Source: a virus. Taken from it: a DNA stretch of 64,000 bases. Below, piece after piece: positions 58,593 to 59,864 of the stretch. Positions within the stretch are counted from its first letter, which is position 1. Each line of letters starts with the position of its first letter. Below the pieces are notes generated by a model. It saw nothing but the letters and a program-made list of their open reading frames with translations, was not told the DNA's origin and searched no databases. A program made the translations under genes and the position numbers. The stretch lies in IMG/VR virus record IMGVR_UViG_3300042884_000193, positions 55,557 to 119,556 of that record; one strand, given 5' to 3'.

Positions 58593-58615
58593 TGGCGCAT
58601 CCATATGATCATTAA
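58592..58615 (+). pseudogene. Relic 5-prime end of the DUF6915-like gene (MAHPYDH*)
   Basis: TAATG coupling to the upstream gene; the peptide matches the MSHPIEH start of 60467. Confidence 0.65.
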
Positions 58616-58633
58616 TAATTAAAACTAAAAACT

Positions 58634-58888
58634 ATGAGTAAATTACTAATCACTAAGACAGAACTCCTTCATGATAAGGAGTATGACTTTATGGAGCAGC
58701 AAGATAAAAGCCTTGCTGATGTATGTATAAAGTACGATGAGATAGTAGCAGTTAGGCAAAATGCAGATGAGGCTGACATTATTAACCCTGATATGTGTGT
58801 TGTCTATCTAAAAAGTGGAGAGCTATTCTTCATCTTCACACCCTATGAAGAGGTGTTACGTTTTATGAAACAATTAAACCAAGATTAA
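58634..58888 (+). CDS. Hypothetical protein, paralogue of 47965
   Basis: Aligns by eye over its C-terminal two-thirds. Confidence 0.7.
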   Translation: MSKLLITKTELLHDKEYDFMEQQDKSLADVCIKYDEIVAVRQNADEADIINPDMCVVYLKSGELFFIFTPYEEVLRFMKQLNQD

Positions 58889-58893
58889 AAGCT

Positions 58894-59115
58894 ATGGAAA
58901 AAGAAACATTTGAAGAATTTTTAGAAAGAGAAGGCTACGATGAAGGTAGAACCCAAGAGATATGGGAAGACGGTGCTAGAAAAGGTGCTGAATGGCAAGC
59001 CAAACAAATGTATAGTAAGGAAGAATTAGCAGATTTAATAGACGCTACTTTTCAAGGTAGACAAGATGTTGCAGATTTATTTTCTGAATTGTTAGAAAAC
59101 CTAAAAACTAAATAA
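58894..59115 (+). CDS. Small phage protein (GAEWQ..MYS family)
   Basis: KETFEE...GAEWQAKQMYSKEE. Confidence 0.65.
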   Translation: MEKETFEEFLEREGYDEGRTQEIWEDGARKGAEWQAKQMYSKEELADLIDATFQGRQDVADLFSELLENLKTK

Positions 59116-59117
59116 AT

Positions 59118-59330
59118 ATGGAAAAGAAACAAACTGCAGTTGAATGGTTGGAATGGCAAATCAATCTTGGATTATCTGAGAGAGGTTTAATTAGTGCTAT
59201 TAAAAAAGCCAAGCAAATGGAGAAGGAGCAGATACTTGATTCTTACATTGAAGGTCATAGCATATATGGTGAGTCTACAAATGCCGAACAATACTACAAC
59301 GAAACTTACGGAAAAACTAAAAATTTATAA
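59118..59330 (+). CDS. KQTAV-family small protein, copy 2
   Basis: MEKKQTAVEWL...QMEKEQI...YYNETYG. Confidence 0.75.
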   Translation: MEKKQTAVEWLEWQINLGLSERGLISAIKKAKQMEKEQILDSYIEGHSIYGESTNAEQYYNETYGKTKNL

Positions 59331-59332
59331 CT

Positions 59333-59527
59333 ATGGAAAATACAAAACAATTAGCATCAGTTAAGGCACTATTAAATCCTCCATATGTAGGTAAGTATTG
59401 CATAGGAGGTTATGGTGGAGGTTATGGTGGAGTGTGTATCTCTTTTACAAAAAAACCTAACTTCTTTCATCGTGCAATGATGAAGATGTTCTTAGGATGG
59501 GAATGGACTGACATAACTAAAAACTAA
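59333..59527 (+). CDS. Mini-gene, hypothetical
   Basis: KKPNFFHRAMMKMFLGWEW; GGY duplication. Confidence 0.6.
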   Translation: MENTKQLASVKALLNPPYVGKYCIGGYGGGYGGVCISFTKKPNFFHRAMMKMFLGWEWTDITKN

Positions 59528-59533
59528 ATAACT

Positions 59534-59788
59534 ATGGAAAAGAAACAAACTGCGGTAACACTATTATTTCAAGAATTTAGAGCTTTATCCGAAGTTATGA
59601 GAAAAGCAGGTGATGAGAAAAATGCTAACCTAATTGATTGTTTATGTGAAAGAGAGGAGGTAGCCAAGCAAATGGAGAAGGAGCAGATTATTGATGCAAG
59701 ACAAGATGGTATTGATGCTGTGTTTAAAGGATATTCAATAAGTAATGAGGAATACTACAACGAAACTTACGGAGGTCAAGATGAGTAA
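59534..59788 (+). CDS. KQTAV-family small protein, copy 3
   Basis: MEKKQTAV...QMEKEQI...YYNETYGGQDE. Confidence 0.75.
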   Translation: MEKKQTAVTLLFQEFRALSEVMRKAGDEKNANLIDCLCEREEVAKQMEKEQIIDARQDGIDAVFKGYSISNEEYYNETYGGQDE

Positions 59789-59864
59789 GTAATTATGGCT
59801 CATTCTTGTATGTATGATTATTTTGTTGTACATTGTACATGTATTAACATATAATCATACGTAC

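Follow-up and report, generated by a model that had tools for sequence, protein, structure and literature searches.

Two kinds of short phage repeat come closest to the element described here (statements on published systems, here and below, follow excerpts of the cited papers). Cluster K mycobacteriophages carry the start-associated sequences SAS and ESAS; the former, GGGATAGGAGCCC, is built around a Shine-Dalgarno core (Pope et al. 2011, PMC3203893). In the hyperplastic regions of T4-type phages, small ORFan genes are bordered by conserved PeSL (promoter-early stem-loop) motifs (Arbiol et al. 2010, PMC2839356). We analysed the last 64 kb (positions 55,557 to 119,556; 64,000 nt, hereafter the window) of the 119,556-bp viral record IMGVR_UViG_3300042884_000193 of IMG/VR, which carries direct terminal repeats, and in particular array 2, a train of mini-genes at window positions 58634-59788. 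The mini-genes are linked by a 17-21-nt stop-start sequence, the junction (consensus AAAACTAAATAACT-ATG), which also links those of a further train, array 1. Array 2 is probably built on an idealised Bacteroidota start that lacks a Shine-Dalgarno sequence and that doubles as a recombination seam between swappable mini-genes. The junction acts like both SAS, as a start-linked repeat, and PeSL, as a shuffling seam, with the defining sequence features of neither.

SAS is likewise a short asymmetric repeat that lies directly upstream of starts, in one orientation and before genes of different families; it accompanies non-structural genes only, the upstream stop codon sometimes falls within it, and it has a proposed but unproven role in translation initiation. 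Its core, however, is a Shine-Dalgarno sequence, whereas the junction is without GGAGG and follows the adenine rule of the Bacteroidia, and SAS is restricted to a single phage cluster and does not occur in its host, whereas the junction is common to unrelated phages and also precedes host genes. Unlike SAS, the junction is packed in tandem mini-gene arrays and marks recombination breakpoints. In this last respect it is closer to PeSL, since recombination between PeSL copies inserts, deletes and replaces small genes among close relatives. A PeSL, however, combines a sigma70-type promoter with a terminator hairpin over ~50-100 nt, whereas the junction is a much shorter translation signal with neither; the host-type box of an early promoter is missing from it, and a promoter for the phage's own polymerase could still be present. 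The PeSL cassettes of T4-type phages are reportedly also the topic of Comeau et al. 2014.

Systems with dedicated enzymes are further removed. Integron cassettes rely on a tyrosine integrase and on attC-type imperfect inverted repeats, whereas the junction has no predicted pairing and a search of this genome for PF00589 found no tyrosine integrase (the control was positive in 14 of 14 genomes). Diversity-generating retroelements rely on a reverse transcriptase and on template and variable repeats; PF00078 was likewise not found in the genome (control positive in 3 of 14 control genomes), and the variation seen here is whole-cassette exchange rather than adenine-specific mutagenesis. With neither reverse transcriptase nor integrase, no dedicated diversification machinery was therefore found. 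In the literature searched, we found no published description of the junction, or of arrays of the KQTAVEW protein family treated below, in phages of Flavobacterium or other Bacteroidota.

The junction and translation initiation

Array 2 comprises five plus-strand open reading frames (ORFs) of 84, 73, 70, 64 and 84 amino acids (aa). Four of their starts (58634, 59118, 59333 and 59534) have a junction copy in front of them; the copy in front of the fifth, 58894, is degenerate. The window holds 14 copies of the 9-mer core of the junction, AAAACTAAA, where 2.36 would be expected, and none of 100 shuffles reached this number; ten of these copies are on the plus strand, and all ten fall within the two arrays. 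When the 17-mer was matched to the whole genome at up to two mismatches, six forward sites and no reverse site were obtained, with none for the reversed control, and these matches are confined to 48.4-49.0 kb and 59.1-59.5 kb of the window. A preliminary description of this DNA had reported five small ORFs with junctions at 58610-59790, and both the ORFs and the junctions are borne out. It had also pointed to a 13-mer, ATTAATAATTAAA, at the entry of each array. The exact copies at 48212 and 58611 are present, but the 13-mer is not significant alone, with two or more matches (at most one mismatch) arising in 15 of 100 shuffles. Each array has a leader gene at its upstream end, and the 13-mer lies after leader 1 yet before leader 2; the two entries are therefore not equivalent.

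Translation in Flavobacterium johnsoniae is promoted by adenines at 0, -3, -6, -12 and -13, by an A-run from -14 to -11 (Baez et al. 2019, PMC6847099) and likewise by low secondary structure (PMC6847099). The consensus junction has adenines at -14 to -11, -8 to -6, -4 and -3, so that every published positive determinant is present. All four upstream adenines (-3, -6, -12, -13) are found at 8 of the 11 junction starts in the window and three of the four at the other 3, compared with a mean of 2.32 at the 41 other plus-strand starts. Over -20 to +10, junction starts have a mean predicted probability of 0.67 of being unpaired, compared with 0.54 at other starts (P 0.0012) and 0.45 at random positions (P 1.6e-6), and no stem-loop was predicted in the junctions, whose regions are the least paired. 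The TAA triplets of the junction usually serve as the stop codon of the upstream gene. The likeness to a Bacteroidia initiation region thus lies in the A-run from -14 to -11, the adenines at -6, -3 and 0, and the low structure. The published rule, however, is statistical and applies position by position, whereas the junction is one exact, reused 17-mer that includes non-adenines and upstream stops. That the junction is conserved, is fixed in position and agrees with the published determinants is observed directly; that it drives translation is what we infer from them.

No Shine-Dalgarno sequence was found upstream of any start in the window, and the upstream regions are all A-rich. Such starts are the pattern of the Bacteroidota, and by this sequence criterion the phage probably has a host of Bacteroidota type. 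TAnnTTTG, the -7 element of Bacteroidota promoters (PMC6847099), does not occur in 58500-59900 and occurs once in array 1, inside a gene; the extended form TTG-N17-21-TAnnTTTG is missing from both arrays.

Cassette exchange among related and unrelated phages

Ten loci (L007-L016), all of which encode a leader 2 identical to that of the window, are its close relatives and present three versions of array 2 (gene names as in Table 1). Version A, that of the window, has the order leader, gp2, MEKKa, GGYGG, MEKKb, HNH endonuclease gene and is complete in L008, L010, L012, L014 and L016 and truncated in L007 and L009. Version B is without MEKKa and GGYGG and has a different KQTAVEW gene after MEKKb (L013; the join is also found in L015). 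In version C (L011), gp2 has another C-terminal half and is followed by a Cys-rich gene of 43 aa and then by a third KQTAVEW gene; a different 272-aa HNH takes the position of the HNH gene of the window. The claim of the preliminary description that variable mini-gene trains are present twice is upheld in that there are two junction-delimited arrays whose content varies.

The breakpoints between versions can be placed precisely. L013 is 99.8% identical to the window up to 59140 and then resumes at 59517; version B is exactly the clean deletion expected of recombination between the 40-nt repeats at 59101-59140 and 59517-59556. In L011, identity to the window in 100-nt bins is 57-95% up to 58599, 100% over 58600-58899 and 98% over 58900-58999, and the match stops at 59025. 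The leader and the N-terminus of gp2 have therefore themselves been swapped as one block, with the junction as its left edge.

Cassettes are also shared with phages of unrelated backbone. L113 is a 33-kb contig in which one of eight larger ORFs has a homologue in this genome, and its arrangement is repeated in L026, L087 and L114. The order there is a relative of gp2 with 61% identity, an additional gene of 127 aa that has a junction on either side, a KQTAVEW gene, and then GGYGG and MEKKb, whose proteins are 100% identical to those of the window. Farther along lie counterparts of two array 1 genes, one identical (the 31-aa gene, 100%) and one related (the 79-aa gene); L113 therefore unites cassettes of the two arrays of the window in one array. 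Positions 59213-59784 of the window match L113:6354-6925 over 572 nt with 100% DNA identity, a block made up of GGYGG and the KQTAVEW gene after it, both complete, and of the 3' half of the KQTAVEW gene before it. This identity suggests a very recent exchange. It begins inside the constant AKQMEKEQ block and stops in the GGQDE block, and the blocks that KQTAVEW genes keep constant are therefore seams alongside the junction. What the alignments show directly is the variation among arrays, the jumps in identity at junctions and blocks, and the sharing between unrelated backbones. Outside the arrays and unrelated to them, patches with 82-93% nucleotide identity to L113 and L087 lie at window 13438-13563, 34446-34554, 34829-34922 and 39944-40064, several of them in gene-poor stretches.

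Beyond these phages, the exact 18-mer (with ATG) occurs in at least 119 IMG/VR viral loci, compared with 20 for the reversed control. After duplicate removal, the 119 loci listed hold 185 distinct junction sites, 131 exact and 54 with one or two mismatches. An ORF of at least 30 aa opens at the junction ATG in 178 of these 185 (median 72 aa, and no more than 100 aa in 132 of the 178), and at 152 sites an upstream ORF stops within -30 to +5, mostly at the junction's own TAAs at -5 (73 sites), -15 (34) and -9 (21). Three or more copies in a row are found in 22 strand-loci among these matches. In 88 of the 119 loci there is no ORF of 120 aa or more with a homologue in this genome, and the junction is therefore not a lineage marker. 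PHROG scans of ten larger junction-preceded proteins from other loci hit an exonuclease, a ParB-like protein and otherwise unknown families.

Among bacteria, at least 120 genomic loci (L144-L263), mostly of Flavobacterium and Chryseobacterium, have the 18-mer as a single copy. Most of these copies stand before one orthologous ammonium-transporter-like gene (MRKIILSV...DTGDTAWM), in dozens of Flavobacterium species, and some, in Chryseobacterium, stand before small GG-leader, Cys-rich peptides resembling bacteriocin precursors.

One large cassette family, KQTAVEW, is without a Pfam family and numbers 306 proteins at E <=0.001 in a word search; its genes share three constant coding blocks, KQTAVEW, AKQMEKEQ and YYNETYGGQDE. 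A search of the ESM Atlas returned only clusters of viral hypothetical proteins, and the three-helix model of MEKKb had no match in the PDB by Foldseek (best E 4.6). For the five array 2 proteins and leader 1, neither Pfam, PHROGs nor PADLOC gave a family at threshold, the Pfam rows all being sub-threshold (E >=0.01); PADLOC matched no cassette, and the 79-aa gene of array 1 matches phrog_21441, of unknown function. Early accessory or host-takeover roles for the cassettes would be a guess. In the DNA of the C-terminal YGGQ(D/E) block of the family, GGAGGT lies 5-6 nt ahead of the overlapping ATG(A) with which the next gene opens (window 49275-49300, window 59775-59790, and in L293), a Shine-Dalgarno-like site that other starts are without.

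Taken together, array 2 is probably a hyperplastic stretch of five small accessory genes inside a replication and recombination module. On a polycistronic mRNA, the junction would provide an idealised initiation region of the Shine-Dalgarno-less type, with its TAAs ending the upstream gene. The junction and the KQTAVEW constant blocks recur both within the genome and in many other phages, and homologous recombination between their copies would delete, permute and import cassettes, perhaps assisted by the Sak4-like annealing protein and the homing-type endonucleases encoded nearby. That these proteins favour recombination at homologies of 20-40 nt is plausible by inference only. The leader would be one cassette among others, a small beta-rich protein with two diverged paralogues. 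Recombination, and not selection alone, presumably keeps the junction identical.

The leader gene and rival explanations

The preliminary description regarded the gene at 58634 as a paralogue of that at 47965, which the alignment confirms (39% identity over 82 aa, E 1e-18). The family is small, with 8 proteins by word search and, in a profile search of 1.84 billion representatives, 47 at E <=0.001 (15 at <=1e-10), mostly of 78-103 aa with a few outliers from 67 to 132 aa. The structure prediction that the same description had called for was obtained: the AlphaFold model has five strands and a C-terminal helix (pLDDT 88, pTM 0.75), and its weak resemblance to a PH-like fold does not assign a function. 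Foldseek matched no PDB entry at E <=0.001 (best 0.04, to PH domains of GRK2), the best VIA-align scores (Z 5.4 to RemA, 5.2 to a PH domain) are within the tool's stated background, and BFVD contained two uncharacterised phage proteins at E <=0.001.

The distribution of the leader bears on its role. Among the 119 junction loci listed, a leader homologue is present in 2 (L045 and L084, close relatives carrying array 1), compared with 35 for the KQTAVEW family, 16 for the 79-aa family and 10 for gp2, and it was found in none of five complete or near-complete phage genomes with clustered junctions, where the profile's positive control on its own genome gave 2. In L103, a syntenic relative with ~80% nucleotide identity in the flanks and a different cassette order, a 71-aa membrane protein and a 115-aa protein occupy the position of leader 1. 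At L103:6413-6922, an MTPKEK-family gene and a KQTAVEW-type start are fused as one 169-aa ORF, which would be a cassette fusion across a lost junction. The canonical junction stands beside none of seven distant leader homologues (L293-L299), L295 having an indel variant. KQTAVEW-like genes occur near three of the seven, immediately beside the homologue in L293 and L298 and downstream of it by four genes in L299, which amounts to no more than a loose link. In L299 (GC 28%), the leader homologue lies within an array of small genes (L299:4000-5200) joined by a strong Shine-Dalgarno junction, AGGAGGTAACA-ATG, with ~6 repeats, which fits junctions being host-adapted start signals. By these sequence comparisons, the leader appears to be just another swappable cassette and not the driver of a module.

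This bears directly on the proposal of the preliminary description that a leader plus a variable mini-gene train forms a duplicated diversification module, with the leader driving the array or needed for it. The paralogous 83-84-aa genes at the upstream end of both arrays would agree with such a module, as would the KQTAVEW genes adjoining, or a few genes from, the homologues in L293, L298 and L299, and the L295 homologue, which, like the leader of the window, has DUF6915-like and DUF6878-like genes nearby. We nevertheless consider it very improbable, in view of the 2 of 119 loci and 0 of 5 complete genomes with a leader, its replacement in the syntenic L103, its own exchange as a block in L011, the 0 of 7 distant leaders beside a canonical junction, the lack of reverse transcriptase and integrase, and a fold that hints at no enzymatic activity. 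A different proposal, that the junction is an operator whose exact sequence is recognised by some factor of phage or host origin (perhaps a translational repressor, RNase or small RNA) that controls all junction-tagged early genes together, its use as a seam being secondary, would account for the retention of C-10, C-2 and T-1, which the adenine rule does not need and which are kept at 58-82% across the arrays of unrelated phages. Junction-bearing genes are also mostly small and non-structural, and the SAS sites of Cluster K have been proposed as possible factor-binding sites (PMC3203893). Recombinational identity by descent, however, accounts equally well for the extra conservation; there is no shared candidate regulator, the leader being missing from five of five other genomes; and the 18-mer also precedes ordinary host genes such as the ammonium-transporter-like gene of Flavobacterium. 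An antisense RNA was considered and dropped as unlikely, the complement of the junction having no genome match at up to two mismatches. Overall, we judge an operator unlikely.

Could each mini-gene instead be its own transcription unit, with the junction as a small promoter or unit boundary comparable to PeSLs of T4-type phages or the intergenic repeats of halovirus HF2? The junction is A/T-rich, repeated and on one strand between small genes, and PeSLs mediate the same kind of shuffling (PMC2839356). In the crAss-like phage phi14:2, moreover, early transcripts are described, in the excerpted part of the preprint, as having no detectable common upstream motif (bioRxiv 10.1101/2020.03.07.982082), and the promoter of the phage polymerase there is therefore undefined. 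We give this explanation very little credence, however, since TAnnTTTG is missing from 58500-59900 and its sole copy in array 1 is intragenic, the conserved part runs from the upstream stop to the ATG with no space for a leader, no stem-loop is predicted in what is the least paired region, and the 18-mer stands directly before the start codons of chromosomal genes. Hardly credible is the reduction of the arrays to chance A/T-rich start contexts, with the variants as metagenome mis-assemblies at repeats. Every gene start in the genome is A-rich, the 13-mer is not significant by itself, and contigs frequently stop within an array, as L087 and L007 do. Against this stand the shuffles (0 of 100), the six forward against no reverse matches with an empty control, the at least 119 loci against 20, the 178 of 185 listed sites at real ORF starts, and the occurrence of variants in more than one independent contig (five complete and two partial for version A, two for version B, four for the L113 type).

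Several observations weigh against reading the junction as a Shine-Dalgarno-less start that doubles as a seam. The non-adenine positions C-10, T-9, T-5, C-2 and T-1 are conserved at 58-82% in arrays, which exceeds what the published determinants require; T-9 and T-5 are accounted for by the stop codons, which leaves C-10, C-2 and T-1 unexplained. In the 22 spans with three or more junctions in a row, 76 of 119 gene starts (64%) match the junction at up to two mismatches, a figure biased upward because these spans were chosen for having at least three. Several breakpoints are intragenic rather than at a junction (59025, the AKQMEKEQ block and the GGQDE block), and the junction is therefore one seam among several. 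All of the relatives are metagenome assemblies, so that a mis-join at repeats is possible for any single contig, and the role in translation is deduced from sequence only.

The naturally selected, near-invariant junction, with all the adenine determinants measured in F. johnsoniae, offers a test object and a practical expression tool for Shine-Dalgarno-less initiation, and the translation of tiny early genes of this type in Bacteroidota phages, like the spread of such genes, is little studied. The arrays are an unusually clean natural record of recombination at homologies of 20-40 nt, and annotators of these phages can rely on the junction to mark where very small genes truly begin. The view that a leader drives a module is corrected as well. 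A more far-reaching view, which we put forward tentatively and hold to be somewhat doubtful, is that the junction is a community-wide standard connector, a portable stop and start, tuned to Bacteroidota ribosomes that are blind to Shine-Dalgarno sites, that lets any mini-gene plug, in translatable form, into the early operon of any phage of these hosts. If so, many unrelated Flavobacteriia-type phages would share one currently exchanging pool of tiny accessory genes, the 572-nt identity would be a trace of that exchange, and the system would be, without the need for an integrase, a passive analogue of integron cassettes.

Genomic setting and feature coordinates

Array 2 is located within the replication and recombination module of this ~120-kb phage and is flanked by homing-type endonuclease genes (Table 1). 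A blastn comparison of 57500-61500 with deposited phage records gave short HNH-type matches in seven records and no relative, and no Rfam families or tRNAs were found in the window.

Table 1. Features of the two arrays and their surroundings, in window coordinates.
Feature	Position	Strand	Remarks
Leader 1, 83 aa	47965..48216	+	paralogue of leader 2; no upstream junction; other genes in its place in L103
Array 1	48212..49033	+	six junction copies among mini-genes of 46, 34, 53, 31, 79, 88 aa
KQTAVEW-family paralogue, 88 aa	49031..49297	+	closes array 1
DnaB-like helicase gene	53523
Sak4-like single-strand annealing protein gene	55071..55814	+	just upstream of array 2
Primase gene	56580
Possible homing endonuclease gene	57815-58231		phrog_7363, E 2e-7; just upstream of array 2
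DUF6878 protein gene	58206
Junction variant ..AAAACTAAAAACT-ATG	58611..58636	+	before leader 2; left edge of swapped block in L011
Leader 2, 84 aa	58634..58888	+	paralogue of 47965; function not assigned
Degenerate junction GATTAAAAGCT-ATG	58881..58896	+	separates leader 2 from 73-aa gene
gp2 mini-gene, 73 aa	58894..59115	+	recurrent internal recombination breakpoint at ~59025
40-nt repeat, copy 1	59101..59140	+	junction and first codons of MEKKQTAV gene
MEKKa, KQTAVEW-family mini-gene, 70 aa	59118..59330	+
Segment shared with L113, 572 nt, 100% identical	59213..59784	+	edges in AKQMEKEQ and GGQDE blocks
Junction variant AAAACTAAAAATTTATAACT-ATG	59313..59335	+	flanks different genes in L011
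GGYGG, Gly/Tyr-rich mini-gene, 64 aa	59333..59527	+	100% identical in L026, L113, L114
40-nt repeat, copy 2	59517..59556	+	95% identical to copy 1; partner in L013/L015 deletion
MEKKb, KQTAVEW-family mini-gene, 84 aa	59534..59788	+	modelled as three helices
GGAGGTCAAG-ATGAGTAAGTAA	59775..59796	+	C-terminal constant block, then relic MSK* start
HNH endonuclease gene	59814..60482	+	bounds array 2
DUF6915-like gene	60467

Relic starts precede the HNH gene at 59785-59830, namely ATGAGTAAGTAA (MSK*) and ATGGCTCAT..., the latter resembling the beginning of the DUF6915-like gene. Together with the differing HNH gene of L011, this looks like repeated insertion of homing endonuclease genes at the downstream edge of the array.

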